NCBI GenBank assembly: GCA_023250195.1
Contig: JAHFBF010000001.1
Span: 406,661 to 470,660 of the forward strand
Direction: 5' to 3'
From: Candidatus Melainabacteria bacterium
Lineage (GTDB): Bacteria > Cyanobacteriota > Vampirovibrionia > 2-02-FULL-35-15
Length of the DNA stretch: 64,000 bases
This document shows, one piece after another, positions 4,978 through 45,347 of this stretch. The first letter of the stretch is position 1, and each line of letters starts with the position of its first letter. Under the pieces are notes generated by a model, which saw only the letters and a list, made by a program, of their open reading frames with translations, had not been told where the DNA came from and ran no database searches. The position numbers were made by a program, and so were the translations under genes.

Positions 4978-5088
4978 AATTTACAATTCACAAAGAATTT
5001 AGCCTATGGTAAATAGATTACATTTATATTTTTAATTTCACAATGGAGCAAAGGGGAACTTCAAGGGTCATCTCTGAAAAAATTAATA

Positions 5089-21411: not shown

Positions 21412-22731
21412 TTAAAGAAATTTCTTTTTTATGTATTCAAAGTGTGAGTAAGTAAGAAAGAAAAGTAGTTCAATTACAAAAAGTAGCTGATAAAAATATC
21501 TTGATTCAGGCTGGTAGGGAAATGAAACAATAATTACAGAAAGGGGAATTGAAATTAAAAATAAGACCTTACTAATAGGTATAATTTTTTTCTTAAGCGG
21601 GGAATATAGCAGCAAGCTAAAACAGGACATAAACACCATTAACCACTTTGAAATATCTATTAATGGATGGAAATATCTGGCACTTGAAAATCCAGGGAAT
21701 AAGTTTCCAAGAAAGAGTTCCTTTAAATTTAAAACCCGCTCTTTAAGCCAATGAGGATTTTTTTTCATACATTCCCACCCTAAGTCATAAAAATACTTTT
21801 GATCATTTATTGGATGATTTGTTTTAAATGTGGGCCATTCCTTGTGCTTCCAGTTCAGCGGTGGACCAAGCGAAAAATTATGTTTTTTATATGATGAAGA
21901 TAGTCCACGGTATTTACACTGGGCAAGAAAAAAATTTGCTCCTGTACTGTTATGCAGACCGGATACATTTCCTTTTGAAATATAAAATATCTGGGAACTG
22001 GCAATAAAGATGACTAAAAAGAAACCAAGAGAAAAAATCACGCTTTTTACAAGATGACTAATTCCAGACTTCTTTCCGGAAAGTAAAAGATAAAACAAGA
22101 AAGACAGGAAAATTGGAGCTAAGCTGGGCTTTAATGCAACTGTAAATCCAAACACAATGCCACTAAAGAATATTCTCGGGTTTTTATTATTAGAACTGAA
22201 AAGCAAATAAACTGAAAAAATAAAAACAGGGATAGCAATATTTTCTGTAAGTATAAATGCGTTTAAATATATCAATGGATAGCTAAATGCATAAAACAAA
22301 GTAGCAAGCATGGGAATAGGTGATTTATTAATTAGATCTTTAGCAATAAAATAGAAAAACACTATAGAAATAGAAGATAAAAAAATATGAAAAGTTAACA
22401 CACTTTCCAGCAAATGTTTATATAAACCAATAAAAGCAATAATCTTAAAAAGGAATGAAAGATATATTTTAAAAAAAACAGGCCATGCTGCCCAGTGAAA
22501 CATTGAAAAAATATTACCTTCATACATTGCAAGCGCTCTATTCCAATACCCACTCATATCACTTACAAGGTAATGTTTATAATCAGTGAAATAAAAAACA
22601 TAAACAATTCTTGTTATGAATGAAGTAACTACTATTAATGCTAAGTAGTAATAATCTGTGGGCAGTTTCTTTAATCTATCCAGCAAATCATTTTTGTAAG
22701 TTTCTAATTGGGTCATTTGAATCTTAGTCAC
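21412..22731 (-). CDS. polytopic membrane protein, possible GT-C-fold glycosyltransferase (ArnT/PMT-like)
   Basis: 439 aa, about 11 predicted TM helices with loops, resembling glycosyltransferase family 39/83-type topology; no decisive motif read. Confidence 0.4.
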   Translation of the reverse strand: MTKIQMTQLETYKNDLLDRLKKLPTDYYYLALIVVTSFITRIVYVFYFTDYKHYLVSDMSGYWNRALAMYEGNIFSMFHWAAWPVFFKIYLSFLFKIIAFIGLYKHLLESVLTFHIFLSSISIVFFYFIAKDLINKSPIPMLATLFYAFSYPLIYLNAFILTENIAIPVFIFSVYLLFSSNNKNPRIFFSGIVFGFTVALKPSLAPIFLSFLFYLLLSGKKSGISHLVKSVIFSLGFFLVIFIASSQIFYISKGNVSGLHNSTGANFFLAQCKYRGLSSSYKKHNFSLGPPLNWKHKEWPTFKTNHPINDQKYFYDLGWECMKKNPHWLKERVLNLKELFLGNLFPGFSSARYFHPLIDISKWLMVFMSCFSLLLYSPLKKKIIPISKVLFLISIPLSVIIVSFPYQPESRYFYQLLFVIELLFFLTYSHFEYIKKKFL

Positions 22732-22874: not shown

Positions 22875-24785
22875 TTATTTTGTTCTTGCTCTTCTATCTC
22901 TAGTTAATGCAAGATCTTTAGATAATATAGTTCTTTCCGTTGCAAGAACTACTACTGAATTTCCCAAATCTATCATTGAACCTGATAGGGTAAATTTAAC
23001 TGTAATAACCCCGTTTTTATTTACCGTTACCTGTTCATCTCCTTGACTTATGCCGCTTGGGAATACAGTAGCAACAATATCATTGGTGATACTGTTAGCA
23101 GTTTTGTTGTGCAGTCCTTTCCTTGCAGCAACTAAAGAACGACCTCTTAAGGTTATAGTAGCTTTGTTGCCATGATGTACATTCAAAGACAATCTTCTTA
23201 TTACAGTAGGGCTTACAAGAGGATTAAAGTTAATTATCTCAATAATTCCACTTAGTGAGAGTCCATTACTTAAATTAAATGAAAATACTGCATCGCCTGT
23301 ACTGACTGCATTCCCATCTGGTAAAAGCAGAGTAAGAATGTATTTGTTAGGTTCATTAGAAATACTCATTATTTCATACTGAAGATCATTGAATACATTT
23401 CCATTACTGGATGAAAGGCTTAAAGAGAGTATTTCTGTATCTATTAAGGGCAATGAAGACCTAATTTCAAAAGATGGGTTAGAACCAGGATAAGCAGTTC
23501 CAACTTTCCCAATAAACTCATCTGGAATTAATGGAAGTTCAACTGCATTTGGTAGTTTTGGAGTTCCTGTAATATCGATATCATATCCTCTTCCTGCTTC
23601 AAAGCCACCGGAGGAAGAACTAGAAGAGGAACTACTAGAAGAAGAGCCGGAAAATTGGTCTGTTCCTAAATTCCCTGAAGATGAAGTTCCTGGTACACAT
23701 TCCGGGAGATTCGAACAAATTTCTGGATTAAATTCACAGCAGCCAAATATACAGCAGTTGTTTCCGCACATTGTCCATTGACAGTCTGGAACGTTAGATA
23801 TTCCTCCTCCTCCTACAGGTACACAAACTGGGGCAGGATTGTTACAGAGTAGTGCTTCTTGATGACGAATAACTGTTCGAGTAGGTAAATTGTCTCCTAC
23901 TGTACAACAGGCAGGTGTATTCTCTGAACAAGATGGTGAACCTAAAGAAGGGCAAGCAGGAGTAGAACCAGTAGGACATGTTACTGCTCCATCTACACAA
24001 CTTATACCACCTGAAGAAGAACCTCCTGATGATGTAGAACTTGAAGTTGTTGATGATGTTGAGCTTGTTGAACCTGATGTTGAACTTGAAGTGCTTGATG
24101 TTGAGCTTGAAGTGCTTGATGTTGAGCTTGAAGTGCTTGATGTTGAGCTTGTTGATGATGATGTGCTAGAAGAACCATGATGATCATCGTCGTCATCATC
24201 ATGACCGCCTGTTGATGATGTACTACTTGATGTTGAGCTTGTTGATGATGATGTGCTAGAAGAACCATGATCATCATCGTCATCATCATGACCGCCTGTT
24301 GATGATGTACTGCTTGATGTTGAACTTGAAGTGCTTGATGTTGAGCTTGAAGTACTTGATGTTGATGAGTTAGATCCTGAAGTCGATGAGTTGGATCCTG
24401 ATGTTGATGAACTAGAACTTGATGCAGGATCACACTTAACCTTGTCATCACACATTGACATAGAATCACAACAATTTGGTTCTCCATCTATGCAAGATAA
24501 AGTATCCATACCACTACATGATGCTACTTCTCCACTAGTACAAAAAACATTCCCATTGGAACAAAATGCAGTTTCTTTATCTTTCTTTGTCTTTATTGAA
24601 TGTGAAGTTCGTGATATAGAAGTGTAATTTCTATTTCTACCATTTGAATATGCTTGTGCTGCAGAATAATCTTTTGTCTTGAATAGAGCCAGTGTTGGTA
24701 AATTAAGAATTAATATTAAAGTAAGACTAACTAAAAATTTAAAGGCCTTTAATTTGATGTTTTTATTTGATTCTTGATTTTGCAT
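22875..24785 (-). CDS. secreted mucin-like Ser/Thr-rich, Cys-rich repeat protein
   Basis: Start taken at the Met preceded by AAGGA (signal/anchor KAFKFLVSLTLILILNLPTLALF); long (SST/SSS)n tracts, repeated GGHDDDDDDHGSSSTSSS units, Cys-rich blocks at both ends. Confidence 0.7.
   Translation of the reverse strand: MQNQESNKNIKLKAFKFLVSLTLILILNLPTLALFKTKDYSAAQAYSNGRNRNYTSISRTSHSIKTKKDKETAFCSNGNVFCTSGEVASCSGMDTLSCIDGEPNCCDSMSMCDDKVKCDPASSSSSSTSGSNSSTSGSNSSTSSTSSSTSSTSSSTSSSTSSTGGHDDDDDDHGSSSTSSSTSSTSSSTSSTGGHDDDDDDHHGSSSTSSSTSSTSSTSSSTSSTSSSTSSTSSSTSGSTSSTSSTTSSSTSSGGSSSGGISCVDGAVTCPTGSTPACPSLGSPSCSENTPACCTVGDNLPTRTVIRHQEALLCNNPAPVCVPVGGGGISNVPDCQWTMCGNNCCIFGCCEFNPEICSNLPECVPGTSSSGNLGTDQFSGSSSSSSSSSSSSGGFEAGRGYDIDITGTPKLPNAVELPLIPDEFIGKVGTAYPGSNPSFEIRSSLPLIDTEILSLSLSSSNGNVFNDLQYEIMSISNEPNKYILTLLLPDGNAVSTGDAVFSFNLSNGLSLSGIIEIINFNPLVSPTVIRRLSLNVHHGNKATITLRGRSLVAARKGLHNKTANSITNDIVATVFPSGISQGDEQVTVNKNGVITVKFTLSGSMIDLGNSVVVLATERTILSKDLALTRDRRARTK
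24001..24420 (-). repeat. tandem coding repeats (Ser-tract and HD6H units)
   Basis: Repeated GATGTTGAGCTTGAAGTGCTT and CATGATCATCGTCGTCATCATCATGACCGCC blocks; the opposite-strand ORFs 23890..24180, 24002..24487 and 24331..24627 are artefacts. Confidence 0.8.
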
Positions 24786-24950
24786 TTTAATATCCTTAAT
24801 TTCCCTTGAAACTTCTAAAACTACTAGAAGTAAAATCATATGACACAGTTAATACAAAGTCAATAAATCCTAAAAGTTAATTTTAGATCTTAAGCATTAA
24901 TCTTAAACTCTTTATGTTTAGCTTTAGATATATCTATATAAGATTAAAAA

Positions 24951-24980
24951 TTTAGGGTGCACTGTTACATGCACCCTAAA
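24951..24980 (-). terminator. rho-independent terminator downstream of 25016..27964
   Basis: 11-bp stem TTTAGGGTGCA/TGCACCCTAAA with 8-nt loop, followed on the transcript by a U-run; near-identical copy at 28132..28157. Confidence 0.7.
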
Positions 24981-25015
24981 AGCTTTTCACAAAGAAATGC
25001 GATTAATTGCGTTCT

Positions 25016-27964
25016 CTACTGCCCTGCAGGGAAGTCACAAATTACACGGAAGCCACGAGTACTCCCTGTAGCTGTAGTTTGATTTCTAAAGTCTGCTGTA
25101 ATAGGCGATGTAGCATCACTGGTTGAAGTATAATTTCCTCCACGAGTTATTGCATATTGAGCATCAGTACTATCCGTAAACAGTTTACCGCTATTCTTAC
25201 CACCATTTAAGTCAGCAGTAGCTCCAGATTGTGTTGGAAGACCTGATCCTTCAAAGTCTATGTCTACAGCAGCAGCACCACCTGCAATATCCTGAAAATT
25301 AAAGACACTGTTGTTTGTTGTAAATGGCAGTACTATTCCAGCTCCTGGATAGCCAGAATCAACTATAAAATCTGAACCACCAGACATAGAAGAATTTGTA
25401 ATCGTAAGGTCTCCCCATTCTTCTACATTACCAATCAAGTCATATACCTGCTTATCACCATCAAATGCACTATTTGAGTTAGTTACATCATCAGCTATTG
25501 CACTGGATGCAAATGTAGTACCATCAGTATTCTTAGTAGCTGAACCATCCAAAATATGTCCCCAGCTTTTAAAGCCAGTACCAGTTAAACATCTATCTCC
25601 AGTACCACTTTGATTTGGATCATCAGCACATTGGAATGAAGCACTATTTCTTAGATCTCTGTTTCCATCCCTGGTATTTCCTCTTTCATTCCAACCATTT
25701 GTAGCGGTTGCACCAAAGATGCTTTTTTGTTTTGCAAATCTGCCCAGTATATAAAGTGCTGTCCATTCCTTATTTCCAATAAGTTTACACGATCCTAAAG
25801 ATGAAATTTGGGCACTGGAAGCAGATGCGTTTGCTTTTGCAGTTGAGTGGCTTATGTTAGTCCAAGGTACTACATTTCTCTGACTGACAGGAATAGAAGA
25901 ACTGCCCTCTGCGGTAGCAGTAGCATCTGCTTTTGATGCTTCATATTTATTAATCCAGAAACCCCCAAAAACAATTCCATTAATAATAAATCTTGGTATT
26001 CTTACCATTCTTGTTGTACAAAGTGAAGATGGTGATACATCACATGAGCTTGTTGAGAAGGTCTTTTCATCTGAGTATGAATTCCAGCTAGAGGAAACTT
26101 CCTGAACTGTAGGAATATCATTTGCTCCTTGGCAGTCAGCCACTGTACATGACCCACTTACGTTTATATCTTCAGTAGCTGTATCACATGAACCATTGCC
26201 GTTTAAATCCCAGCAATTTAAACCATTAGTTCCATTGGTACCGTTAGTTCCGTTGGTTCCATTTGCTCCATTAGTCCCATTGGTTCCATTTGCTCCGTTG
26301 GTTCCATTAGTTCCATTACAGACATAATTTGTTGCTGTGACTTCACCGGAATCTAAAGTATTGTCATTATTTGAATCAAGCCCTGATTCTACTTTCTTGC
26401 CACCAGTAGAACAATTTGTTCCTGCTGATTCTGTAGTAATCTTTACCAAACTGTTTAAACCATTAGTTCCATTGGTACCGTTAGTTCCGTTGGTTCCATT
26501 TGCTCCATTAGTTCCGTTAGTTCCGTTAGTTCCATTGGTTCCATTACAGACATAATTTGTTGCTGTGACTTCACCGGAATCTAAAGTATTGTCATTATTT
26601 GAATCAAGCCCTGATTCTACTTTCTTGCCACCAGTAGAACAATTTGTTCCTGCTGATTCTGTAGTAATCTTTACCAAACTGTTTAAACCATTGGTTCCAT
26701 TGGTACCGTTAGTTCCATTGGCTCCGTTTGCTCCATTGCAGACAAAAGATGTTGAACTTACTTCACCAGAATCAAGCACACTATTTCCATTAGCATCAAG
26801 ACCAACTTCTATTTTTCTTCCACCTGTTGCACAATTTGCTCCGGCTGATTCTGTGGTTGATTTTGTAAGTGCATTATTTCCACCCATTCCATCACTACCA
26901 TTGCTTCCTGCATTTCCAGCAGTTCCAAGTGGAATAGTAAAAGTCAGGTTACAAAGAACCGGATCAAAAAACGCATCAGCCTTTGTCCCTGGTGCACCAT
27001 TATTTGCTGAGATCATTAATAATGCATTTAGATCATTACAGACACCCATACCATCCATGCCATTAATCCCATCCATTCCATCCATAATTACAACGGTAGG
27101 GATAGTTTCAGGAGACAAACTATTTGTTCCAAGGGTCTGATTATTTACAAATACTCCACCTACAATAGTTACTGTTGAGTTAAGAATCGGACTTGTAATA
27201 GTTATATCTCTAGATCCAACTGGAGCATCACTTTTCGGAGTAGCTAACACATCCAAAGTTGAATCATCTAAAGCTATAGTCTCTCTTACAGTAATATCAT
27301 TATTGCTGAATGAAACTTCTGTAAATGCATCTAATCCTTTACCTTTAATTGTAAGTTTATTTTCTACCCCGGCCTTTAGATCCCGTGTTATTGAATCAAG
27401 CCTAAACTCAGGTAGAGTAAACACAATCGTGTCAGCAGAATCATTGCCATCAACAGTAGCTCTTAAAGTATATTGGCCTGGTTTTAACCCTTTTACAAAA
27501 ATTTTGAATATTTTAAAGTCCAGGGCCTGAACTATTGAGCTTTGATTTTGAGTTTTATTTAAATTAAACGTAACTGATTGATTTTTTGTAACTATTTTAT
27601 TTTTACCTGTTTTTATTAAGTTTTGATCTTCTCTAAGCTCTGATATTCTAAATATCTTTAATCCAGTCATTAAAAGTGTGGCATTGTCAATTCCAAGACC
27701 TGTTCCCTGTGCACCAATAACTTCTACTTTTACAACCATTGCATCAGGCTTAAGTAACAGATCCAGGGATACTCTTTGATCAAGTTCTATATTATTCCTG
27801 TTATATCTGAATGCCGGCAATAAATTAGCTGATATTCTCTCTTGAGAAATTGTACTTCTGGCTTTTACTGCATAAATATTAACTGCATAAGCAGCACCGC
27901 TTTGATTCAGCAGAAGTACAGCTATTAATACAACCTTACATAGAAGACTTAACTTATTTTTCAT
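25016..27964 (-). CDS. giant secreted protein: conserved N-domain, Gly-Thr-Asn triplet tracts, Asp-rich repeat modules, C-terminal FGE-sulfatase (SUMF1)-like domain
   Basis: Signal peptide; N-terminal 330 aa nearly identical to 28187..32443; (GTN)n tracts; about 45-aa modules ...TESAGTNCSTGGKKVESGLDSNNDNTLDSGEVTATNYVCNG; C-terminal FGE-type motifs MVRIPRF...WINKYEAS, NKEWTALYILG, QVYDLIGNVEEW, TRGGNY...GFRVICD. Confidence 0.85.
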   Translation of the reverse strand: MKNKLSLLCKVVLIAVLLLNQSGAAYAVNIYAVKARSTISQERISANLLPAFRYNRNNIELDQRVSLDLLLKPDAMVVKVEVIGAQGTGLGIDNATLLMTGLKIFRISELREDQNLIKTGKNKIVTKNQSVTFNLNKTQNQSSIVQALDFKIFKIFVKGLKPGQYTLRATVDGNDSADTIVFTLPEFRLDSITRDLKAGVENKLTIKGKGLDAFTEVSFSNNDITVRETIALDDSTLDVLATPKSDAPVGSRDITITSPILNSTVTIVGGVFVNNQTLGTNSLSPETIPTVVIMDGMDGINGMDGMGVCNDLNALLMISANNGAPGTKADAFFDPVLCNLTFTIPLGTAGNAGSNGSDGMGGNNALTKSTTESAGANCATGGRKIEVGLDANGNSVLDSGEVSSTSFVCNGANGANGTNGTNGTNGLNSLVKITTESAGTNCSTGGKKVESGLDSNNDNTLDSGEVTATNYVCNGTNGTNGTNGTNGANGTNGTNGTNGTNGLNSLVKITTESAGTNCSTGGKKVESGLDSNNDNTLDSGEVTATNYVCNGTNGTNGANGTNGTNGANGTNGTNGTNGTNGLNCWDLNGNGSCDTATEDINVSGSCTVADCQGANDIPTVQEVSSSWNSYSDEKTFSTSSCDVSPSSLCTTRMVRIPRFIINGIVFGGFWINKYEASKADATATAEGSSSIPVSQRNVVPWTNISHSTAKANASASSAQISSLGSCKLIGNKEWTALYILGRFAKQKSIFGATATNGWNERGNTRDGNRDLRNSASFQCADDPNQSGTGDRCLTGTGFKSWGHILDGSATKNTDGTTFASSAIADDVTNSNSAFDGDKQVYDLIGNVEEWGDLTITNSSMSGGSDFIVDSGYPGAGIVLPFTTNNSVFNFQDIAGGAAAVDIDFEGSGLPTQSGATADLNGGKNSGKLFTDSTDAQYAITRGGNYTSTSDATSPITADFRNQTTATGSTRGFRVICDFPAGQ
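26221..26317 (-). repeat. hexanucleotide (GTTCCR/TTGGTN) tract encoding (Gly-Thr-Asn)n
   Basis: CCATTAGTTCCATTGGTACCGTTAGTTCCGTTGGTTCC...; further tracts at 26458..26548 and 26688..26740; the opposite strand reads PLVPLVP (artefact ORFs 26337..26555, 26565..27140). Confidence 0.85.
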
Positions 27965-28131
27965 TTTTGCAGCTCCCCAATTTTCTTAACTGGATAACTC
28001 TTCTCAGATCAAGACTAAGAATAAGTTAAATCCAAGTACAAGCCCTTTTGTGATCCATGGCAACCCTAAGATCATGTTGCACTGGACATCATTCACTTGA
28101 TATAAAGACAAAGTTATTTATTGCAAAAAAA

Positions 28132-28157
28132 TAGGGTGCACTGTTACATGCACCCTA
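28132..28157 (-). terminator. rho-independent terminator downstream of 28187..32443
   Basis: TAGGGTGCA-CTGTTACA-TGCACCCTA hairpin, duplicate of 24951..24980. Confidence 0.7.
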
Positions 28158-28186
28158 AAAGTTTTTCACGAAGAGGCTCTTACTCT

Positions 28187-31100
28187 TTAGAAGTCACAGA
28201 TTACACGGAATCCACGACGCTCGTCAGTAGTAGTAGTCACATCATTACCATCAATTATAAGTGGTGAAGGAGCACTGGCACCATCATTACAAGCACCACC
28301 ACGAGTTATACCGTATTGTGCATCTGTTGTAGTTGTAGAAAGAGTTCCTGAATTCTTCCCGCCATTTGTATCATTCAAGCCACCATTTGCAGTAGCAGGA
28401 AGTCCAAGTCCACTAAAAGTAGATGATGTTGATATATCTATAGAGTTAAAGATCGCTCCATCTGTCGTAAATGGAAGCACTGATCCTGCTCCTGTATAGC
28501 CAGTATCAACTACAAAGTCTGAGCCAGACATGGTAGAAGAATTTGTAAAAGTATAGTCAATCCATTCTTTTACATTTCCAACAAGATCATAGACCTGTTT
28601 ATCACCATCCAAAGTATCAGCACCTGATCCACCATTGTCATCTTTAACAGCATCTGCTGTACTACCAAGTGAAGTACCTGTCGCATTTATAGTAGCTGAA
28701 CCATCTAAAAGATGTCCCCAGCTCTTATAACCTGTTCCAGTTAAGCAGACATCGCCAGTACCACTTTGATCTGGATCATCTTCACATACAGATGAACCAC
28801 TATCTCTGCCATCTCTGTTTCCATTTCTGGTATTCCCTCTTTCATTCCAACCGTTTGTAGCAGTTGAACCAAAGAGTCCTGTACTTTTTGCAACTTTACC
28901 AAGAATATAAAGAGCAGTCCACTCTTTCATTCCTATAAGTCTGCATGAACCAATACCAGTAATTTGTCTATTTAAACTAGATGCATTTGTCTTTGCAGTA
29001 GCCTGACTTATGTTTGTCCATGGCTCTACTCTACGTTGGCTTACAGGTACACTAGAAGTTCCTTGATCTGTTGCTGTAGCATTTGCTCTAGAAGCTTCAT
29101 ACTTGTCTATCCAGAAACCACCATACTCTACACCTTTATAAGTAAACTTTGGTATTTTTACCATTCTAGTCATACTGCTCATGTCATTTGTAGTGTAGTT
29201 TACTTCATCAGATAAAGTATTCCAGTTATTCACCAAACCGATAATTGCTGCTTCCTGGCAATCATCAGCTGTATATAAACCGTCATTATTTACATCTTCA
29301 GCTGCATCATTTACACCATCTTCATCTACATCCCAGCAGTTAATTCCATTAGTTCCATTTGAACCATTGGTTCCGTTTGTACCATTAATTCCATTACAGA
29401 CATAGCTGGTAGAAGCGATTTCACCACCAGTTAGCATATTGTCATTATTTGCATCAATACCGGCTTCCACTTTCTGACCGCCAGCTGTACAGTTTGCACC
29501 TGAACCTTCAGATGTTACAACAACTAAGCTAGTTGAGCCATTGGTTCCGTTAGTACCATTAGTTCCATCAGTTCCAGCACAATCAGCAACGTCTACTACA
29601 GTATCACCATTTAGATCTTCAGTTGCTACATCACCTACTCCATTATTATTTAAATCCCAGCAGGCTTGTCCGTTGGTTCCATTAGTACCGTTAGTTCCAT
29701 TAGTTCCGTTGGTTCCGTTAGTACCATTGGTTCCGTTTGTACCATTAGTTCCATCAGTTCCAGCACAATCAGCAACGTCTACTACAGTATCACCATTTAG
29801 ATCTTCAGTTGCTACATCACCTACTCCATTATTATTTAAATCCCAGCAGGCTTGTCCATTGGTTCCGTTGGTTCCGTTAGTTCCATTGGTTCCGTTAGTT
29901 CCGTTAGTTCCGTTGGTTCCGTTAGTTCCATTAGTTCCGTTGGTTCCGTTTGTACCATTGGCTCCATTACAGACATAGTTTGTAGAAGTAATTTCACCAC
30001 CAGCTAAAGAACCATTATTATTTGTATCCAGTCCAGATTCTACTTTTTTCCCACCATTAGCACAATTTGCACCAGCTGATTCTGTAGTAACCTTTACCAA
30101 GCTGTTCAAACCGTTGGTTCCATTTGTACCATTAGTTCCGTTGGTTCCGTTTGTACCATTGGCTCCATTGCAGACATAGTTTGTAGAAGTAATTTCACCA
30201 CCAGCTAAAGAACCATTGCCATTTGTATCTATTCCAGATTCTACTTTCTTTCCACCATTAGCACAATTTGCACCGGCTGATTCTGTAGTAATCTTTACCA
30301 AACTGTTCAAGCCATTGGTTCCGTTAGTTCCGTTAGTACCATTAGTTCCATTTGTACCGTTGCATACATAAGTAGTTGATGTAATTTCTCCTCCACTTAA
30401 AGAACCATTGCCATTTGTATCAACCCCACTCTGTATCTTCTTTCCACCATTAGCACAGTTTCCACCTGGGTTTTCATTTGAGGATGTTACAAGTGTTTGT
30501 AAACCATTGCAAACATATGATGTAGCATCAACTTCTCCCGAGTCAAGAGTACTATCACCATCATCATCTACTCCTACCTGAATTTTTCTTCCACCGTTTG
30601 CACAGTTTCCACCTGGGTTTTCATTTGAGGATGTAATTAAACTGTTTGATCCATTACATGCATAAGTCGTAGAGTCTATTTCACCTGCATCAAGTGTGTT
30701 ATCTCCATCATCATCTACTCCTACGCGAATCTTTCTACCACCGCTTGGACAGTTTGCTCCAGATGGTTCGCTTGAAGATGTAATTAAACTGTTTGATCCG
30801 TTACATGCATAGGTTGTAGAGTCTATTTCACCTGCATCAAGTGTGTTATCTCCATCATCATCTACTCCTACGCGAATCTTTCTACCACCGCTTGGACAGT
30901 TTGCTCCAGATGGTTCGCTTGAAGATGTAATTAAACTGTTTGATCCGTTACATGCATAAGTCGTAGACTCAACTTCTCCAAGATCAAGAACATTGTCTCC
31001 GTCATCATCTACTCCTGCCTGAAATTTTCTACCACCACTTGGACAGTTTGCTCCGGATGGTTCGCTTGAGGATGTAATTAAACTGTTTGATCCATTACAT

Positions 31101-32443
31101 GCATAGGTCGTTGATGTAATTTCTCCACTATCAAGAACACCACTTCCATCAGTGTCAGTACCAACTTCAAACTTTTGCCCACCGCTTGGACAGTTTGCTC
31201 CGGATGGTTCGCTTGATGTATTAGTTAAACTATTTTCACCTGCAGGAATACCAAGAACTAAAGTACACAAAATAGAATTAAAAGTAGTAGTAGCTGCTAA
31301 ACCTGGCGCAAGGGTAACATTTGAAATTACAAGTGTTGCATTCATATCATCACAAACACCCATTCCATCAGATCCATTACTTCCATTAATTCCATTAAAA
31401 CCTACAGGAATGCTGAAAGTAAGGTTACAAAGAACTGGATCAAAAAACACATCAGACATTGAACCTGGGATTCCATTGTTTGTAGTAATCATTAATAAAG
31501 CATTCATATCATCACAAACACCCATTCCATCCACGCCATTCATACCATCCATAATTACAACAGATGGATTAATGTTTGCATTATCAGGAGATAAACCATT
31601 TGTTCCAAGGGTCGGATTATTTACAAGTACTCCATTTACTATAGTGACCGTATTGCCAGTAAGCGGACTTGTAATAGTTACATCTCTATAACCATTTGGG
31701 GCATTACTTGTTGAAGTTGCCAATACCTTTAAAGTAGAATCATCTAAAGCTATGGTATCTCTTACAGTAATATCACCATTGCTGAATGAAACTGCTGTTA
31801 ATGCATCCAATCCTTTTCCTAGAAGTGTAAGTGTAGTTTCAACACCGGGATTTATAACTGATGGGGTTACTGCATCCAGTCTAAAGTTTGGCCTTGTAAA
31901 CACAATCGTGTCAGTAGAATCATTATCATCAATAGTAGCTCTTACAGTATATTGGCCAGGAAGACGTCCTTTTACAAATACTTTGAATATTTTAAAGTCC
32001 AGAGCCTGAACTATTAAGCTTTGATTTTGAGTTTTATTTAAATTAAAAGTAACTGATTGATTTTTTGTAACTATTTTGTTCTTGCCTGTTTTTGTCAACT
32101 TTTGATCTTCTCTAAGCTCTGATGTTCTAAATATCTTTAATCCACCCATTAAAAGTGTGGAATTATCAATTCCAAGGCCTGTTCCCTGTGCACCAATAAC
32201 TTCTACTCTTACAACCATTGCATCAGGCTTAAGTAACAGATCCAGGGGTATTCTTTGATCAAGTTCTATATTATTCCTGTCATATCTGAATGCCGGCAAT
32301 AAATTAGCTGATACTCTCTCTTGAGAGATTGTAGTTTTGGTTTTAACTGCATAAATATTAACTGCATAAGCAGCACCGGTTTGATTCAGCAGAAGTGCAG
32401 CTATTAACACAACCCTACATAGAAAGCTTAATTTATTTTTCAT
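28187..32443 (-). CDS. giant secreted protein, paralog of 25016..27964 (expanded repeat modules, C-terminal FGE-sulfatase-like domain)
   Basis: 1418 aa; same signal peptide and N-domain; at least 7 tandem 45-aa modules SLITSSSEPSGANCPSGGRKxxVGVDDDGDNTLDAGEIDSTTYACNGSN (three nearly identical); (GTN)n tracts up to 13 triplets; duplicated CWDLNNNGVGDVATEDLNGDTVVDVADC units; C-terminal YDLVGNVKEW / GFRVICDF. Confidence 0.85.
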   Translation of the reverse strand: MKNKLSFLCRVVLIAALLLNQTGAAYAVNIYAVKTKTTISQERVSANLLPAFRYDRNNIELDQRIPLDLLLKPDAMVVRVEVIGAQGTGLGIDNSTLLMGGLKIFRTSELREDQKLTKTGKNKIVTKNQSVTFNLNKTQNQSLIVQALDFKIFKVFVKGRLPGQYTVRATIDDNDSTDTIVFTRPNFRLDAVTPSVINPGVETTLTLLGKGLDALTAVSFSNGDITVRDTIALDDSTLKVLATSTSNAPNGYRDVTITSPLTGNTVTIVNGVLVNNPTLGTNGLSPDNANINPSVVIMDGMNGVDGMGVCDDMNALLMITTNNGIPGSMSDVFFDPVLCNLTFSIPVGFNGINGSNGSDGMGVCDDMNATLVISNVTLAPGLAATTTFNSILCTLVLGIPAGENSLTNTSSEPSGANCPSGGQKFEVGTDTDGSGVLDSGEITSTTYACNGSNSLITSSSEPSGANCPSGGRKFQAGVDDDGDNVLDLGEVESTTYACNGSNSLITSSSEPSGANCPSGGRKIRVGVDDDGDNTLDAGEIDSTTYACNGSNSLITSSSEPSGANCPSGGRKIRVGVDDDGDNTLDAGEIDSTTYACNGSNSLITSSNENPGGNCANGGRKIQVGVDDDGDSTLDSGEVDATSYVCNGLQTLVTSSNENPGGNCANGGKKIQSGVDTNGNGSLSGGEITSTTYVCNGTNGTNGTNGTNGTNGLNSLVKITTESAGANCANGGKKVESGIDTNGNGSLAGGEITSTNYVCNGANGTNGTNGTNGTNGTNGLNSLVKVTTESAGANCANGGKKVESGLDTNNNGSLAGGEITSTNYVCNGANGTNGTNGTNGTNGTNGTNGTNGTNGTNGTNGTNGQACWDLNNNGVGDVATEDLNGDTVVDVADCAGTDGTNGTNGTNGTNGTNGTNGTNGTNGTNGQACWDLNNNGVGDVATEDLNGDTVVDVADCAGTDGTNGTNGTNGSTSLVVVTSEGSGANCTAGGQKVEAGIDANNDNMLTGGEIASTSYVCNGINGTNGTNGSNGTNGINCWDVDEDGVNDAAEDVNNDGLYTADDCQEAAIIGLVNNWNTLSDEVNYTTNDMSSMTRMVKIPKFTYKGVEYGGFWIDKYEASRANATATDQGTSSVPVSQRRVEPWTNISQATAKTNASSLNRQITGIGSCRLIGMKEWTALYILGKVAKSTGLFGSTATNGWNERGNTRNGNRDGRDSGSSVCEDDPDQSGTGDVCLTGTGYKSWGHLLDGSATINATGTSLGSTADAVKDDNGGSGADTLDGDKQVYDLVGNVKEWIDYTFTNSSTMSGSDFVVDTGYTGAGSVLPFTTDGAIFNSIDISTSSTFSGLGLPATANGGLNDTNGGKNSGTLSTTTTDAQYGITRGGACNDGASAPSPLIIDGNDVTTTTDERRGFRVICDF
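29670..29970 (-). repeat. hexanucleotide tracts encoding (Gly-Thr-Asn)n plus duplicated about 190-bp unit
   Basis: GTTGGTTCCATTAGTACCGTTAGTTCC... tracts at about 29670..29760 and 29858..29970 flanking duplicated ...CAGCACAATCAGCAACGTCTACTACAGTATCACC... units; the opposite-strand ORF 29541..29978 is an artefact. Confidence 0.85.
30470..31210 (-). repeat. tandem about 135-bp coding repeats (45-aa Asp-rich modules)
   Basis: Repeated ...TCCACCTGGGTTTTCATTTGAGGATGT... and ...GGACAGTTTGCTCC(A/G)GATGGTTCGCTTGA(A/G)GATGTAATTAAACTGTTTGATCC... blocks; boundaries approximate. Confidence 0.75.
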
Positions 32444-32761
32444 TTTGAAAATTCTCCTGTTTTTTTAACTAGCTAACTCTTCTCAGATTAAGAAATAAGT
32501 TAAATCCAAGTACAAGCCCTTTTTACGATCCATGACAGCCCTAAGGTTATATTATAACTGGATATCATTCAACTCTTTTTATAATTTATTTATCTTCATT
32601 TTGTTATAAAGACAAAATACACTTGCTTCAAAAAACTCTAAAACAAAGATTGATCAGGAAATATATATTTTTAGATTAATTATTTTTAATATATTATGAT
32701 CATTGAACTGATTCCAGTTAATCTACATTGATTTTTTTAATTTAGGTACTAAAACACTAAA

Positions 32762-33325
32762 GTGAACTTAATACAACTTATCAGGTTACAAATAATTCTT
32801 CTATCAGGGACTCTTTTACTGTTTGTTTGTTTTTTTAGTGCTTCTTTTGCTCAAATAACTTCAAGCACTACTCAAACAAATATTAAAACAAGCAGCAGTG
32901 AAATAACCTCTTCTTTAAAAGAGAAATATCAGGTAGATAAATATTACTGGGTCATCTATGATAATGTCTGCCCATACTGCCGCTCAGCTACAAAACATAT
33001 TAAGGACCTTGACTGGGAGAAAAAAATCAAGTTTCTATCTTATAGAAATCCTTTGACTTATAGAATATTTCCTGATCTGTCTAAAGAAGAATGTGAGAAA
33101 GATGTACACATGGTTACACCAAAAGGTGAAATTTTGTCCGGTTATAAAGTATTCAGAACGATAATAGATAACTTAACAGCTACAAAGATTTTGAATCCTC
33201 TTCTTAAAAATAATTATGCAGAAGCAAAGCTAAATGAAATCTACGAAAAGATGGTTAAAGAGAGAAGTTGCTATTATAAGAAGTCCGAGACCTGTGGTTT
33301 AACAAGCCGTAAAGAAGAACAATAA
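32762..33325 (+). CDS. thiol-disulfide oxidoreductase-like protein (DCC/DUF393-like, CPYC motif)
   Basis: GTG start; N-terminal hydrophobic segment; YWVIYDNVCPYCRSATKHIKDLDWEKKIKFLSYRN resembles the DCC-family CxxC...D...F pattern and a glutaredoxin-like CPYC site. Confidence 0.45.
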   Translation: MNLIQLIRLQIILLSGTLLLFVCFFSASFAQITSSTTQTNIKTSSSEITSSLKEKYQVDKYYWVIYDNVCPYCRSATKHIKDLDWEKKIKFLSYRNPLTYRIFPDLSKEECEKDVHMVTPKGEILSGYKVFRTIIDNLTATKILNPLLKNNYAEAKLNEIYEKMVKERSCYYKKSETCGLTSRKEEQ

Positions 33326-41359: not shown

Positions 41360-41917
41360 TTGATAAAAATAATTTTATGCTTTAATAAAGCACTAATTAT
41401 GAGAACTATCTTAATTCCAGAAGAAAAAATTGAAAATAAAATCTTCCTTATGAGAGGAAAAAGAGTAATGCTAGATAAAGATTTAGCTGAACTTTATGGA
41501 GTAAAGACCAAAGTTTTAAATCAAGCTATAAAAAGAAACATGGAAAGATTTCCTGAAGATTTTATGTTTCAATTGACAAAAGAAGAGGCTAATTCTTTAA
41601 GGTCACAATTTGTGACCTTAAAACGTGGAGAACATTTAAAATATCTGCCTTATGCCTTTACAGAACAAGGTGTAGCTATGCTATCCTCTGTTTTAAATTC
41701 CAAAAGAGCAATTCAAGTAAATATCCAGATTATGCGGATATTTACAAAGCTTAGAGAAGTCATAGCCAACAATAAGGAAATTATGCAAAAGCTTAATCAA
41801 CTTGAAAGTAAAATTGAAAAACACGATTCAGAAATTCAGTCTATCTTTGAAGCAATCCGGCAATTAATTTCTATTCCGGAAAAACAAAAAAGAAAGGTTG
41901 GTTTTTATACAAATTAA
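41360..41917 (+). CDS. ORF6N (KilA-N-related) domain DNA-binding protein
   Basis: MRGKRVMLDKDLAELYGVKTKVLNQAIKRNMERFPEDFMFQLTKEE...YLPYAFTEQGVAMLSSVLNSKRAIQVNIQIMRIF is a near-consensus ORF6N domain; coiled-coil C-terminus. Confidence 0.85.
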   Translation: MIKIILCFNKALIMRTILIPEEKIENKIFLMRGKRVMLDKDLAELYGVKTKVLNQAIKRNMERFPEDFMFQLTKEEANSLRSQFVTLKRGEHLKYLPYAFTEQGVAMLSSVLNSKRAIQVNIQIMRIFTKLREVIANNKEIMQKLNQLESKIEKHDSEIQSIFEAIRQLISIPEKQKRKVGFYTN

Positions 41918-42093: not shown

Positions 42094-42402
42094 TTAACCC
42101 GATATATTCTCTTTATACAAGAGGTCATTTAAGACTTCTCCACCAAGCAGATGTTTTTGAATTAAATCTTCAACTCTATCTTCTGTAAAGCCACAATATA
42201 CTGTCCCTTCAGGCCATACCACTATATTTGGCCCTTTTCCGCATAAACCCAGACAAAGCACCCTTGAAGGCCTATAAGTTTTCTTTAAATCAAGCTCTTT
42301 TATCCTTGCTTTAAGTTTTTCAAAGACTTTATCACTACCCTGACATTTACAGGTTTCATTTAAGCAAACCAATACATGCTTTTTATATGGAATGTTATGC
42401 AT
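42094..42402 (-). CDS. thioredoxin-like [2Fe-2S] ferredoxin
   Basis: Four Cys in the family pattern: HVLVCLNETCKCQGS ... VLCLGLCGKGPNIVVWPEGTVY. Confidence 0.7.
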   Translation of the reverse strand: MHNIPYKKHVLVCLNETCKCQGSDKVFEKLKARIKELDLKKTYRPSRVLCLGLCGKGPNIVVWPEGTVYCGFTEDRVEDLIQKHLLGGEVLNDLLYKENISG

Positions 42403-42883
42403 TTCCCTTTAATCTCTTTTCTATAATCTTATTATATTTTTCAATGTTATCCTCACCAATTAAACTTTCAATAACCTGTTTTGTCTTTGAATCAATAAAA
42501 ATAACTATGCCACTATATCTTTGTGATTTATAAACTGCTTCCAAGTCAAGTACTTTTGCTATTCTTTTTGACTTAATTACTGTAAAAGGATTTGAAAGAT
42601 CATACTTTAAAAAAACTAAATCTGGATTTTGTGAATAATCCTGCTGAAGCTTCTCAAATACAGGTTCAATGAATTTGCAGGTCTCACATCTGTTGTGATA
42701 AACATCCAGAATTATTAACTTTGAATTATTTACCTTGTTTACTATATCCTGCACATTTGCTTTTTCGGCTGCTGATTGAATACCTAAATTACTGCAACCG
42801 CAGAATAAAATAATCGTAAGTGATAATAAATAAGTAGTAAGTAAAAGCTTTTTTAAAAAAATCATCAGATTCAATCTTTTCAT
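42395..42883 (-). CDS. thioredoxin-like protein (CxxC), probable lipoprotein/periplasmic
   Basis: Signal peptide ending LFCGCS; CxxC motif HNRCETCKFIEPVFEKL; overlaps the ferredoxin gene start by 8 nt (operon). Confidence 0.6.
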   Translation of the reverse strand: MKRLNLMIFLKKLLLTTYLLSLTIILFCGCSNLGIQSAAEKANVQDIVNKVNNSKLIILDVYHNRCETCKFIEPVFEKLQQDYSQNPDLVFLKYDLSNPFTVIKSKRIAKVLDLEAVYKSQRYSGIVIFIDSKTKQVIESLIGEDNIEKYNKIIEKRLKGNA

Positions 42884-43014
42884 AGTAAGATTATATTATG
42901 TCAGCTGCATTTACGTTCTCACAGTTTATAGGCTTTGTCCGATTTATTCGGCAAAGCCGGTCAAATGTAATTACAAAGCCACGGGAAGTGCAAACTTGTT
43001 TTGCACTATAAAAA

Positions 43015-43722
43015 ATGAATAACCTTCTTAGCAACTTTGAACAAGCAGTTTCAAATTTTTTAAAAGGAACACACGGATTGCCTTTACCTTTCCTTATATT
43101 GCTTTCTTTTGGCGGAGGGCTTGCTGCAAGTTTAACCCCCTGTGTAGTTGCAATGTTACCAATGAACTTAAGTTATATTGGTACTGCTAATATCACATCC
43201 AAATTTGACGCATTGAAAAAATCTCTTTTTTTTGTTTTAGGCGCTGCCTTTATTTTTAGTCTGCTTGGATTGTTTGCTTCTTTTGCCAGTTTTATTATGA
43301 TTGAGTACAGAGGCTATGTACATGTAATTATTGGAATATTTGTTTTATTTATGGCATTATCAGAACTTGAAATAGTAAAACTCCCATTACCACAGTTCAT
43401 TACACAAATTCCAAATGGTGGACCATTTCTTGTAGGTATGGCATTTGCACTTGCAAGTTCTCCATGCGCAAGCCCAATTTTATTTGCAATTTTAGCTATG
43501 TCCAGTACTGCCGGATCATTAATCGGTGGGACACTAATAATGATTGCTTATTCTATAGGCTATACAGGGGTAATTTTTATAGCAGGCTTATTTGCAGGCA
43601 TTGCAAAACAGTTGGATTATTTTAAAAAGCATTCAAAAATTATTTCAATAGTAAGCGCAACAATCCTTGGAATTATTGGTGGATTTTATTTATATTCAGG
43701 GATTAGATGGTTTACAGGATGA
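43015..43722 (+). CDS. CcdA/DsbD-family transmembrane thiol:disulfide electron transporter
   Basis: 6-TM protein with the two conserved Cys: LSFGGGLAASLTPCVVAMLP and LASSPCASPILFAIL. Confidence 0.75.
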   Translation: MNNLLSNFEQAVSNFLKGTHGLPLPFLILLSFGGGLAASLTPCVVAMLPMNLSYIGTANITSKFDALKKSLFFVLGAAFIFSLLGLFASFASFIMIEYRGYVHVIIGIFVLFMALSELEIVKLPLPQFITQIPNGGPFLVGMAFALASSPCASPILFAILAMSSTAGSLIGGTLIMIAYSIGYTGVIFIAGLFAGIAKQLDYFKKHSKIISIVSATILGIIGGFYLYSGIRWFTG

Positions 43723-43725
43723 CAA

Positions 43726-44472
43726 TCAAATTAATATTCTGCTCTTCTTTAATACACTAACTAATTTCATAGCTTCTTTCTCAAAATTCTTATAATTACT
43801 CTTATCCACCTGGTAAGCATTTGCCAGGAAATATATAACCATATCAATTGATAACCCGGATTTTAAAAGTTCTATAAATGCAAAACTACTTGTTGAAAGC
43901 TCAAAAAATCTTACATTGAAATTCTTTGGATCCCGATAAATTAGAACATTTGTTATTTGTTTATATATCTTCCCTAAAGGTTGATTATTTTCAATCATTT
44001 CAACAATTTCAGGAATTGCATATTGAAAAGCACAAATCTCATGTACTGGATTCAAGCAAAGAGTCTTATTAGCTTTCTTAATTCCTTCTTTCTCATATAT
44101 TTTCACTTCAAGCCATTCATAACATGCAAGTTCACTTATAAAAGGATAGTTTTTTAAGATGTCTTTTCTCGTAAATAAATATTCGGGTAAATGCTCAACT
44201 ACTTTATTAAAAATTGGAGAGCCTGGCGGATATTTTTCCAAATAATCAGATAATAAATCGTCCCAAATTTTACTCAATAACTTATAAGTCACCGGATAAA
44301 TATTTACAGATAAATCGTGAAAAGAACCTCTGACTAATTCACGGTAAATTTTTATTCTTTCAAGGATTGACCTGGATAAACCTTTAACTTTATTTTTTTT
44401 ACTCCAGACAGAATCAAATAGAATCAAATCTTTAATTACTTTTTGAGTTTTTTTTAGACTATTTAAAGTCAC
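43726..44472 (-). CDS. DUF2063-family partner protein of the MNIO enzyme (HvfC/BufC-like)
   Basis: Start overlaps the MNIO stop (translational coupling); N-terminal half follows the DUF2063 pattern (IYRELVRGSFHDLSVNIYPVTYKLL...YPPGSPIF...LPEYLF...PFISELACYEWLE). Confidence 0.65.
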   Translation of the reverse strand: MTLNSLKKTQKVIKDLILFDSVWSKKNKVKGLSRSILERIKIYRELVRGSFHDLSVNIYPVTYKLLSKIWDDLLSDYLEKYPPGSPIFNKVVEHLPEYLFTRKDILKNYPFISELACYEWLEVKIYEKEGIKKANKTLCLNPVHEICAFQYAIPEIVEMIENNQPLGKIYKQITNVLIYRDPKNFNVRFFELSTSSFAFIELLKSGLSIDMVIYFLANAYQVDKSNYKNFEKEAMKLVSVLKKSRILI

Positions 44473-45347
44473 TAAGCCGCCTTCTTAAAAGATTTCATAA
44501 TAGTCTTGATTTTTTTTATTTCATTGAGCAGTTCTGAGAACTTTGGGAAATTAAAATCCCTTTCCAGCAATACTGCTTTTGGTGTGCATCTTTTTAAAAG
44601 TTCACCAAATAAATTGTAAACATCTCTGATAATTGGTTCACCATGCGTATCAATAATAATTTTCCCTCTGTTTAAATGCCCTGCTATATGTACCTGTACA
44701 GTACGTTCAATAGGAATACTATCCAAAAACCTTATCGGGTCATATTTATGATTTTTACTGTTTACATAAACATTATTTATATCTAGAAGTAACCCACAAT
44801 CTGCTTTTTCAAGGATTTGTGAAATGAAATCTGCTTCACTCATTTCATTATCTATAACCATATAATAAGAAGGATTTTCAATCAAAAAAGGAACCTGGAA
44901 AATATCCTGAGCTTTTTTTATTCTATTTACTAAATGTTTGACTGTAACTTTGTTATAAGGTAAAGGAATCAAGTCATGAATGTATGTTTTCTCAACATAG
45001 TTAAAACATAAATGATCACTAAACCATGAGGGGTCTATAATTTTAAAAAGCTTTTTTACGTTATTAATTAAAGCCGGATCAAACGGTTCTGTACCACCAA
45101 TTGAAAGATTTAATCCATGAGGAATAATTGGAAAATATTTTTTAGCATTTACAAGCCTTTCAAATATTTCTCCACCACGACAGATATAATTCTCAGGAGC
45201 AATTTCAAGCCAGTCAATTTGATTTTTATGTCTCAGAATAGGGCTATATAACTCTCTTCTTAGTCCAAGTCCAACCCCAAAATTTGGTAATTTATTTTTT
45301 TCTTTTTGAAATGTTTTTCCCATCACCGCCACATTGACCTTCACCAC
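44472..45347 (-). CDS. MNIO (multinuclear non-heme iron-dependent oxidative enzyme, DUF692), RiPP-modifying
   Basis: Ordered DUF692 hallmark motifs: FGVGLGLRRE, WLEIAPENY, HGLNLSIGG, FSDHLCF, FLIENPSYY, LLLDINNVYVNS, VQVHIAGH, IIDTHGEPI, AVLLERDFNFP. Start uncertain (GTG 45347 or ATG 45323). Confidence 0.85.
   Translation of the reverse strand: MVKVNVAVMGKTFQKEKNKLPNFGVGLGLRRELYSPILRHKNQIDWLEIAPENYICRGGEIFERLVNAKKYFPIIPHGLNLSIGGTEPFDPALINNVKKLFKIIDPSWFSDHLCFNYVEKTYIHDLIPLPYNKVTVKHLVNRIKKAQDIFQVPFLIENPSYYMVIDNEMSEADFISQILEKADCGLLLDINNVYVNSKNHKYDPIRFLDSIPIERTVQVHIAGHLNRGKIIIDTHGEPIIRDVYNLFGELLKRCTPKAVLLERDFNFPKFSELLNEIKKIKTIMKSFKKAA

Follow-up and report, generated by a model that had tools for sequence, protein, structure and literature searches.

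Two paralogs of common modular plan

The stretch of DNA analysed here (the window, 64,000 nucleotides (nt) in length) comes from a Candidatus Melainabacteria bacterium (GenBank assembly GCA_023250195.1, contig JAHFBF010000001.1, positions 406,661 to 470,660 of the forward strand). Melainabacteria are the non-photosynthetic sister group of Cyanobacteria. The window carries two neighbouring paralogs, genes A and B, which lie on the minus strand as uninterrupted open reading frames (ORFs) and encode proteins made of a signal peptide, an N-terminal domain (N-domain), a stalk of repeated modules and a C-terminal head. An earlier reading made from the letters of the DNA (the sequence-only reading) had described two paralogs with a common signal peptide and N-domain and different numbers of repeats, and the minus-strand ORFs were found exactly where it had placed them. 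Its word 'giant' was too strong: at 982 and 1418 residues the proteins are large. The genes, their N-terminal parts and their flanking regions are:

28187..32443, minus strand: gene B, ORF of 1418 residues; Pfam matches to DUF7151 (nine) and Collagen
25016..27964, minus strand: gene A, ORF of 982 residues; Pfam matches to DUF7151 (three) and Collagen
32444..32585, minus strand: region upstream of B, about 140 nt, homologous to that of A; promoter and 5' leader within the duplicated unit
27965..28105, minus strand: region upstream of A, homologous to that of B
32363..32443, minus strand: signal peptide of B, residues 1-27, MKNK..AAYA/V, read by eye from the sequence
27884..27964, minus strand: signal peptide of A, residues 1-27, read by eye from the sequence
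31574..32362, minus strand: N-domain of B, residues 28-290; a family-specific region of about 160 residues and an immunoglobulin (Ig)-like sandwich, residues 189-267
27095..27883, minus strand: N-domain of A, residues 28-290; 79% amino acid identity to B
28132..28157, minus strand: intrinsic terminator hairpin after gene B, stem sequence identical to that of A
24951..24980, minus strand: intrinsic terminator hairpin after gene A, stem identical to that of B

The order of parts is common to the two proteins: signal peptide, family-specific region, Ig-like domain, one or two Cys modules, an array of DUF7151 modules, one or more CWD repeats, a short linker and a domain of about 330 residues that ends the protein. 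Between the N-domain and the C-type-lectin (CLec) head, A has one Cys module, three DUF7151 modules, three long Gly-X-Y (G-X-Y) tracts and one CWD repeat, and B has two Cys modules, nine DUF7151 modules, six G-X-Y tracts and three CWD Ca-loop repeats. The signal peptides, inspected by eye, are of the Sec type (basic n-region, hydrophobic core, A-x-A site) and are identical at 23 of 27 residues. The Ig-like domain (residues 189-267) matches Pfam Qn_am_d_aIII with 24.9 bits (cut-off 22). All 19 homologues of the N-domain belong to the A/B family; among solved structures, the N-domain profile matched by sequence nothing but the Ig-like domain of amine dehydrogenase (E 0.34). An exact-sequence look-up with protein A returned no record.

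A and B each possess a leader of about 140 nt and a terminator of their own; the duplicated unit is therefore the whole transcription unit. The leaders of A and B have a stretch in common (TTAAC..TTCTTA..TGAGAA), which recurs upstream of several orthologs. A search of Rfam with 24700..32900 gave no match at E <= 1, so that the 5' leader of the two genes belongs to no known RNA family.

Modules and Gly-X-Y tracts of the stalk

The stalk is composed, from the N-domain towards the head, of the following parts:

31232..31573, minus strand: two Cys modules of B, about 39 residues each, GVCDD..LCNLTF.IP, each flanked by short G-X-Y runs
30356..31231, minus strand: six DUF7151 modules of B, head to tail, residues 405-696, linkers of 2 residues; period of 147 nt, exact repeat of 143 nt
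29339..30355, minus strand: three further DUF7151 modules of B, with (GTN)n tracts of 5-13 triplets between them; period of 186 nt, 94% matches
29759..29848 and 29573..29662, minus strand: two identical CWD Ca-loop repeats of B, inside 29339..30355
29255..29338, minus strand: last CWD repeat of B, residues 1036-1063, CWDVDEDG..DDC, just before the head
26873..27094, minus strand: one Cys module of A, with short G-X-Y runs on its flanks
26216..26872, minus strand: three DUF7151 modules of A, separated by (GTN)n of 6, 10 and 11 triplets; period of 228 nt, 94% matches
26126..26215, minus strand: CWD repeat of A, residues 584-613

The repeated 45-residue module that the sequence-only reading had pointed out is real and far above chance. 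It corresponds to Pfam DUF7151 (PF23657), present in 3 copies in A (E 1.7e-55, 185 bits) and 9 copies in B (E 1.1e-147, 480 bits; cut-off 27.2 for both). The unit is about 46 residues long, with a period of 49 residues (147 nt) where copies abut, and copies 3 and 4 of the six-module array of B are identical at the protein level. Every copy in A and B contains a pair of cysteines spaced by 31 residues, and each contains a 12-residue loop of EF-hand type, e.g. DTNGNGSLAGGE and DDDGDNTLDAGE. A relaxed form of this loop (D-x-[DNS]-x-[DNS]-x-x-[ILVM]-x-x-x-E) was found in 12 of the 12 modules, compared with 0.03-0.07 expected in shuffled sequences; the strict form (D-x-[DNS]-x-[DNS]-G-x-[ILV]-x-x-x-E) was found in 4 of the 12, and no flanking helices are evident. 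When a profile of the module was compared with the PDB, EF-hand proteins were the only matches, and weak ones (whole-sequence E 0.006-0.016, single stretches non-significant). The 'Ca-binding-like' signature proposed earlier is thus supported at the level of the motif, from which Ca2+ binding by the DUF7151 modules may reasonably be inferred. The CWD repeats (about 30 residues) consist of two Asp/Asn-rich loops clamped by two cysteines, and are conserved in homologous loci.

The (GTN)n tracts are runs of 5-13 G-X-Y triplets with Thr in X and Asn in Y, free of proline. They were correctly described at the outset as formally Gly-X-Y and score above the Pfam Collagen (PF01391) threshold of 27.2 (A, 36.1 bits, E 5.4e-09; B, 58.4 bits, E 5.9e-16), scores to which low-complexity bias possibly contributes. 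Each GTN triplet also spells an N-G-T sequon. Homologues hold ordinary GPP-type collagen at the positions where A and B hold GTN or GMD runs (e.g. GPPGPTGPPGPFGPQGPPG in P0010), so that the GTN tracts represent a collagen-like spacer of altered composition. Short paralogs hold GPQGLQGEKGEVGPPG or GKDGKDGKDG at the tract positions, the closest ortholog already has (GTN)5 and (GTN)13, and the flanks of the Cys modules are ordinary collagen sequence in homologues. The NCBIfam equivalogs of the LPXTG adhesins SclA/SclB gave 17-36 bits, against cut-offs of 325-400, and no LPXTG was found at the C-terminus.

A C-terminal head with the fold of formylglycine-generating enzymes

The heads end the two proteins:

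28190..29170, minus strand: head of B, residues 1092-1418; CLec fold of the subtype seen in formylglycine-generating enzyme (FGE), TaqVP-like, no catalytic Cys pair
25019..26014, minus strand: head of A, residues 651-982; 62% amino acid identity to the head of B, 79% to the single-copy ortholog in locus L005

The motifs GNVxEW, RGG and GFRV, from which the sequence-only reading had deduced an FGE/SUMF1-like domain, are present in both C-termini, and the protein ends 5-9 residues past GFRV. With Pfam PF03781 (FGE-sulfatase), the isolated heads scored 19.0 and 19.2 bits, under the cut-off of 23.3 (E about 1e-3, over fragmentary stretches), and full-length A and B gave no match at E <= 0.01. The heads therefore formally fail to match FGE models, but the link to the superfamily is still solid. 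The head of B alone found six proteins among 5.8 billion, including P0006 (E 5e-8, 33% identity), which carries PF03781. A profile of the family found 648 proteins in a representative set of 1.84 billion; 31 of the 67 that were scanned match PF03781 and none of them a competing family at that place. In a second search for relatives of the head, 94 proteins were obtained, most of them with a precomputed PF03781 match.

A search of PDB sequences with a single head sequence found nothing, and one with a profile of 8 head sequences gave non-significant matches only (PorK, E 0.17; 5vf4, E 0.59). The head was modelled from a 90-sequence alignment, an earlier 8-sequence alignment having given a predicted local distance difference test score (pLDDT) of 33.8. 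The head has an FGE-subtype C-type-lectin fold, and its closest structures are TaqVP, TvpA and Mtd.

The catalytic triad of FGE is formed in hFGE by Ser333, Cys336 and Cys341 (PMC6328139). When 20 family members were aligned, the segment from RGG to GFR showed no conserved cysteine, B alone having one there, which is non-conserved; four cysteines are conserved elsewhere in the head, and within the family the C-terminal half of the head varies more than any other part. Because no catalytic Cys pair is conserved, the head, although it has the FGE-subtype fold, is predicted not to be an FGE and to represent a non-enzymatic, ligand-binding version of this fold. The earlier assignment thus stands for the motifs and the fold and falls for the enzyme function. 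An 'FGE-sulfatase' label on such a secreted repeat protein is an annotation trap, as it would wrongly imply sulfatase maturation.

Relationship of the heads to variable proteins of diversity-generating retroelements

Several relatives of the head are encoded next to diversity-generating retroelements (DGRs). P0006 closes a phage tail/baseplate cluster and has Avd and a reverse transcriptase (RT) behind it; Avd and RT likewise come after the genes of seven more distant relatives, which derive from Selenomonas, from other Firmicutes and from an archaeon. In a phage database the head matched AdtA alone, a DGR target encoded by the archaeal virus ANMV-1. As in DGR variable proteins, the would-be variable region (VR) is at the extreme C-terminus of the C-type-lectin fold.

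When DGR RT and Avd were used as tblastn queries, they were detected in loci L003, L019-L024 and L027, and otherwise neither in the 64-kb window nor in L001-L017; Pfam scans of the window ORFs up to 54927 found no RVT. Apart from the paralog, no second DNA copy of either head was found in the window. Self-searches with the last 220 nt of the gene revealed no template repeat in the flanks of 15 Melainabacteria loci; in the positive control, L003, a template repeat was found with 88% identity over 125 nt. A local DGR was therefore rejected, as RT, Avd and template repeat are absent from the window and from 15 related loci. Between A and its ortholog, 4 of the 42 residues of the VR-equivalent segment differ, a rate close to that of the rest of the head. 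In the absence of RT, Avd and template repeat nearby, and with a VR-equivalent segment no more variable than the rest, the heads appear to be fixed, non-hypermutated relatives of DGR variable domains; the pair would thus show a DGR-type head scaffold in fixed form.

Evolution of the pair

The sequence-only reading had called the N-terminal ends of the two genes nearly identical. This overstates their similarity: the DNA is 83% identical over 1084 nt, and the longest exact run common to the 5' parts of A and B is 39 nt. Identity is 92-94% in the first 400 nt, 71-78% beyond, and 67.5% in the head. Synonymous divergence (dS) between A and B increases along the genes, from 0.14 (codons 1-133) to 0.38 (codons 134-290), 0.80 (Cys-module region) and 0.98 (head). 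With respect to L005, a single-copy ortholog of 849 residues, dS of A and B is 0.70-0.86 along the N-domain, and that of the B head is 1.27. Protein identities are:

A and B: N-domain 79%, head 62%
A and L005: N-domain 68%, head 79%
B and L005: N-domain 75%, head 61%

The dS gradient and the discordant relationships to the single-copy ortholog support the gene conversion that had been suggested from the similarity of the 5' ends. The simplest reading of these comparisons is that an old duplication preceded the split from the L005 lineage, A being the head-ortholog, and that recent gene conversion homogenised the leader, the signal peptide and the N-domain, with the heads continuing to diverge. 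The tandem pair would thus be a clean small case of mosaic evolution, combining 5' gene conversion and a diverging binding head.

Distribution and genomic context of the family

The family is essentially limited to metagenome-assembled genomes (MAGs) of Candidatus Melainabacteria from groundwater and related habitats. At least 14 independent MAG loci were found to have full-length homologues built in the same way; the DUF7151 count ranges from 0 up to at least 6, and in several genomes the gene occurs twice, at unlinked sites. Among the loci examined, the tandem pair is present in this window only. Loci L014 and L016 belong to a bin labelled 'uncultured Gammaproteobacteria' (CAZRTB01) and have two family copies with the same MFS neighbour; this label is probably wrong.

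Gene order is conserved in at least 7 MAG loci: fatty-acid desaturase, RNA-recognition-motif (RRM) protein, DCC1-like protein, family gene, MFS_3 transporter and Peptidase_S8 (subtilase). The rest of the window is housekeeping or metabolic, and no phage, secretion-system or RT gene was found among the window ORFs scanned (up to 54927). A prophage or tailocin origin of the locus was rejected on the grounds of this conserved housekeeping synteny. The DCC1-like thiol-disulfide oxidoreductase (32762..33325, plus strand) has its own signal or anchor, is divergent upstream of B and occupies the same place in at least 7 Melainabacteria loci. It may act on the fibre's many Cys pairs.

Melainabacteria also have a family of short headless paralogs (P0245-P0258, 420-550 residues) that share the N-domain and have Cys modules, one or two DUF7151 modules and genuinely collagen-like runs. 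These proteins stop right after the last module; in several of them a hydrophobic, anchor-like segment at the N-terminus takes the place of a clear cleavable signal peptide.

Comparison with known proteins

TaqVP is the DGR variable protein of a Thermus aquaticus prophage, a single-domain monomer of 381 residues (PDB 5vf4; PMC6328139). Sequence identity is about 21% only, and the profile match to 5vf4 is non-significant (E 0.59). Unlike TaqVP, A and B bear the head on a stalk of 650-1090 residues preceded by a signal peptide, and neither RT nor template repeat was found near them. Mtd (the tail-fibre tip of Bordetella phage BPP-1), other DGR-type heads of phage tail fibres and TvpA of Treponema are viral and/or DGR-linked, whereas A and B are chromosomal and lie in a conserved Melainabacteria locus. 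The heads also differ from FGE (SUMF1) and from its paralog pFGE (SUMF2, PDB 1y4j), as they combine the lack of a catalytic Cys pair and a sub-threshold PF03781 score with extra inserts and a secreted-fibre context.

Lcl of Legionella pneumophila, the analogue of A and B that is best characterised, is a trimeric 'lollipop' with a collagen-like stalk of polymorphic repeat number and a C-type-lectin-like head that binds host glycosaminoglycans (PMC11162425). Like A and B, it is a secreted bacterial protein that joins a collagen-like stalk to a C-terminal head of C-type-lectin type. It differs from them by its small DUF1566 head, its continuous collagen of the GPQGLPGPKGD type and its N-terminus, a helix of 30 residues; it has no DUF7151, Cys module or CWD repeat, and no sequence homology to A or B was detected. 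Scl1/Scl2 of Streptococcus, BclA of the Bacillus exosporium and animal collectins likewise combine G-X-Y repeats with a globular head. Collectins pair collagen with a C-type lectin domain. A and B differ from Scl and BclA by the absence of LPXTG and by G-X-Y runs that are short, interrupted by globular modules and rich in Thr and Asn; the likeness to collectins is by analogy alone.

The 'tail fiber protein' of Maribacter phages Colly_1/Molly (YP_010357265.1), whose annotation is not experimental, resembles A and B in that DUF7151-like modules alternate with G-X-Y (tblastn, 30% identity, five modules, E 7e-15). It differs from them in its length (658 residues), its (G-x-D)n tracts, its lipoprotein-like N-terminus and its other, Cys-rich C-terminus, which has no CLec head. 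Because of this alternation of DUF7151 and G-X-Y in Maribacter phages, the stalk modules as well as the head have relatives in viral fibres.

Our literature searches found no paper that mentions DUF7151 and, for collagen in Melainabacteria, only irrelevant gut-microbiome papers. The domain combination, which the sequence-only reading did not recognise as described, indeed appears undescribed as a whole; its parts are known, DUF7151 from Pfam and the alternation of DUF7151 with G-X-Y from the Maribacter phage. Each component is thus of a known kind, and precedents for joining a collagen-like stalk to a lectin-like head exist in bacteria, viruses and animals. The novelty lies in the combination of components, the unusual GTN spacer, the TaqVP-like head in a fixed cellular context, and the lineage, for which the searches turned up nothing published.

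Function of A and B

A and B are probably ligand-binding surface or extracellular fibres, that is adhesins, and not sulfatase-maturing enzymes. They would be elongated, Sec-exported proteins with the family-specific and Ig-like domains at the cell-proximal end, since some family members have an N-terminal anchor-like hydrophobic segment and no C-terminal sorting signal is present past the head. Their stalk would be built of small disulfide-locked modules (Cys, DUF7151, CWD) alternating with collagen-like G-X-Y spacers that have drifted to (Gly-Thr-Asn)n in this lineage. Ca2+ and disulfides may stiffen this stalk, for which the adjoining conserved DCC1-like oxidoreductase is suggestive, and the G-X-Y tracts may trimerise the fibre. 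The distal head may bind a ligand via the surface of its variable C-terminal half, and thereby promote adhesion to a surface, a particle or another cell; its scaffold would be that of DGR variable proteins and phage tail-fibre tips, which bind through the surface of their last 40 residues or so. The pair would then display diverged heads, 62% identical, on two stalks that differ in length, the 5' thirds being kept alike by gene conversion.

Several points weigh against adhesive fibres of this kind. The AF2 alignment consisted largely of DGR-type proteins, and the closeness of the modelled head to TaqVP would be partly inherited from them; about 90 residues of the head model (100-190 of the domain) have low confidence. 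TaqVP is monomeric, and by analogy with it a lectin head need not mean a trimer. The G-X-Y runs, which are short, lack proline and are rich in Asn, may serve as flexible linkers instead of triple helices; furthermore, six DUF7151 modules of B abut without any G-X-Y spacer. To judge by its sequence, the N-domain has no recognisable anchor function, and no secretion genes that would serve to cross the outer membrane were found nearby, among the window ORFs scanned up to 54927.

Alternatively, A and B could be structural parts of an envelope layer, a sheath or a Ca2+-crosslinked matrix, in which the head serves for self-assembly or for anchoring to the cell's own polysaccharide. Repetitive Ca-loop modules with collagen-like spacers fit a fibre or a matrix, the headless paralogs with the same N-domain, collagen and DUF7151 indicate that the stalk works without a head, and in many MAGs the locus keeps its place among housekeeping genes. 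However, this fold serves ligand recognition in DGR proteins and phage tail fibres, the C-terminal half of the head is the most variable in the family, and A and B differ most in the head, as expected of diverging specificities. We therefore consider a mainly structural role rather unlikely.

A bolder version of the adhesin reading is that A and B are a cellular counterpart of phage tail fibres or collectins: trimeric, Ca2+-stiffened collagen-like fibres that recognise another cell or surface, with receptor-binding heads on the DGR scaffold that owe their diversity to duplication and not to a retroelement, an anchoring end kept uniform by 5' gene conversion, and (GTN)n as a new glycosylatable bacterial triple helix. 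Recognition of another cell is plausible because the lineage includes the epibiotic predator Vampirovibrio; as a whole, this version is speculative and we would regard it as doubtful.

It could also be proposed that the heads are diversified in trans by a DGR elsewhere in the genome, in which case their last 40 residues or so would be hypervariable in the population. The nearest structural relative (TaqVP) and the nearest sequence relatives outside the family are DGR variable proteins, the head, like a DGR variable region, comes last in the protein, and a hairpin follows each stop codon. These hairpins nevertheless carry T-runs and are read as terminators, variability is spread across the whole C-terminal half of the head, the VR-equivalent segment of A is about as close to its ortholog (4 of 42 residues differing) as the rest of the head, and the searches for RT, Avd and template repeat that were positive in L003 were negative in the window and in the flanks of the 15 Melainabacteria loci. 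Diversification in trans is accordingly improbable. Still less credible is an FGE-fold enzyme on a secreted scaffold (generating formylglycine, or acting as an EgtB/OvoA-like or other oxidase), as was implied by the sequence-only reading: the motifs and fold on which it rests are present, and the catalytic Cys pair is conserved in none of the 20 family members.

Finally, it is very improbable that the tandem pair or its repeat arrays are an assembly artefact, a collapsed or mis-joined repeat. Short reads cope badly with exact internal repeats of 143-155 nt and with units of 186-228 nt that are 94% identical, public assemblies are broken or gapped inside these genes, and the pair was seen in no other locus examined. 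Against this, A and B have diverged (DNA identity of 83% at the 5' end and of 67.5% in the head, dS up to 0.98), each has its own leader and terminator, both ORFs are uninterrupted and the same architecture recurs in many independent MAGs. Such breaks occur in L001 (European Nucleotide Archive (ENA) scaffold_9862, 2766..5625), where a gap of 100 N lies inside the ortholog and the database holds only a C-terminal fragment of 370 residues (P0001), and in an independent ENA contig (ERZ27296333, 4007 nt), which carries an identical DCC1-like neighbour beside a B-like ORF of at least 995 residues that runs off the contig end. Because public assemblies fragment these genes, protein databases under-represent the full-length family. 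The divergence of the copies, the recurrence of the architecture in independent MAGs and the independent ENA contig establish that genes A and B are real; their repeat copy numbers are uncertain and could change without touching the main conclusion.

As probable adhesive fibres, A and B would give DUF7151 its first functional context, as a disulfide-locked bead with an EF-hand-like loop. They provide a candidate surface-recognition system, with a conserved locus, variable stalk length and headless paralogs, for uncultured Melainabacteria, whose cell-surface biology is essentially unknown. Current understanding is not overturned by these findings.

Other genes of the window

Two genes are inserted downstream of A only in this window. 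The first (22875..24839, minus strand), just downstream of A, encodes a secreted protein of 654 residues with long Ser/Thr tracts, Cys-rich segments and two GGHDDDDDDH motifs inside an 87-nt repeat; it has no Pfam or NCBIfam match and is absent from syntenic loci. A weak relative of its C-terminal 230 residues (28% identity, E 1e-11) is encoded in L016, some 3 kb away from the family gene. The second (21412..22731, minus strand) encodes a polytopic membrane protein of 439 residues that is absent from related loci. The idea, prompted by its place beside Ser/Thr- and NGT-rich exported proteins, that it could be a glycosyltransferase acting on them is unsupported, as it has no Pfam match even at E 10 and is absent from syntenic loci.

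A second tandem pair of large secreted paralogs, of 1328 and 1171 residues, is encoded at 991..4977 and 5089..8604 (minus strand). These proteins have a common N-terminal region and long Cys-rich repeats (C..C.CP.G type), with fn3 in one of them, and are unrelated in sequence to A and B. A gene for a DsbA-like thioredoxin (8967..9689, plus strand) is divergent beside them, so that a disulfide oxidoreductase again adjoins very large Cys-rich exported proteins.

Further along, 43726..45347 (minus strand) encodes an enzyme of the MbnB/TglH/ChrH family (E 1e-95), which modifies ribosomally synthesised and post-translationally modified peptides, followed by a DUF2063 partner; together they form the two-gene core of a methanobactin/TglHI-like peptide modification. 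They are adjoined by a thioredoxin and a DsbD-type membrane protein (42395..43722). The ORF6N domain is typical of phage antirepressor-like proteins, and one ORF6N-domain protein (41360..41917, plus strand; E 7e-38) is encoded in isolation among metabolic genes.

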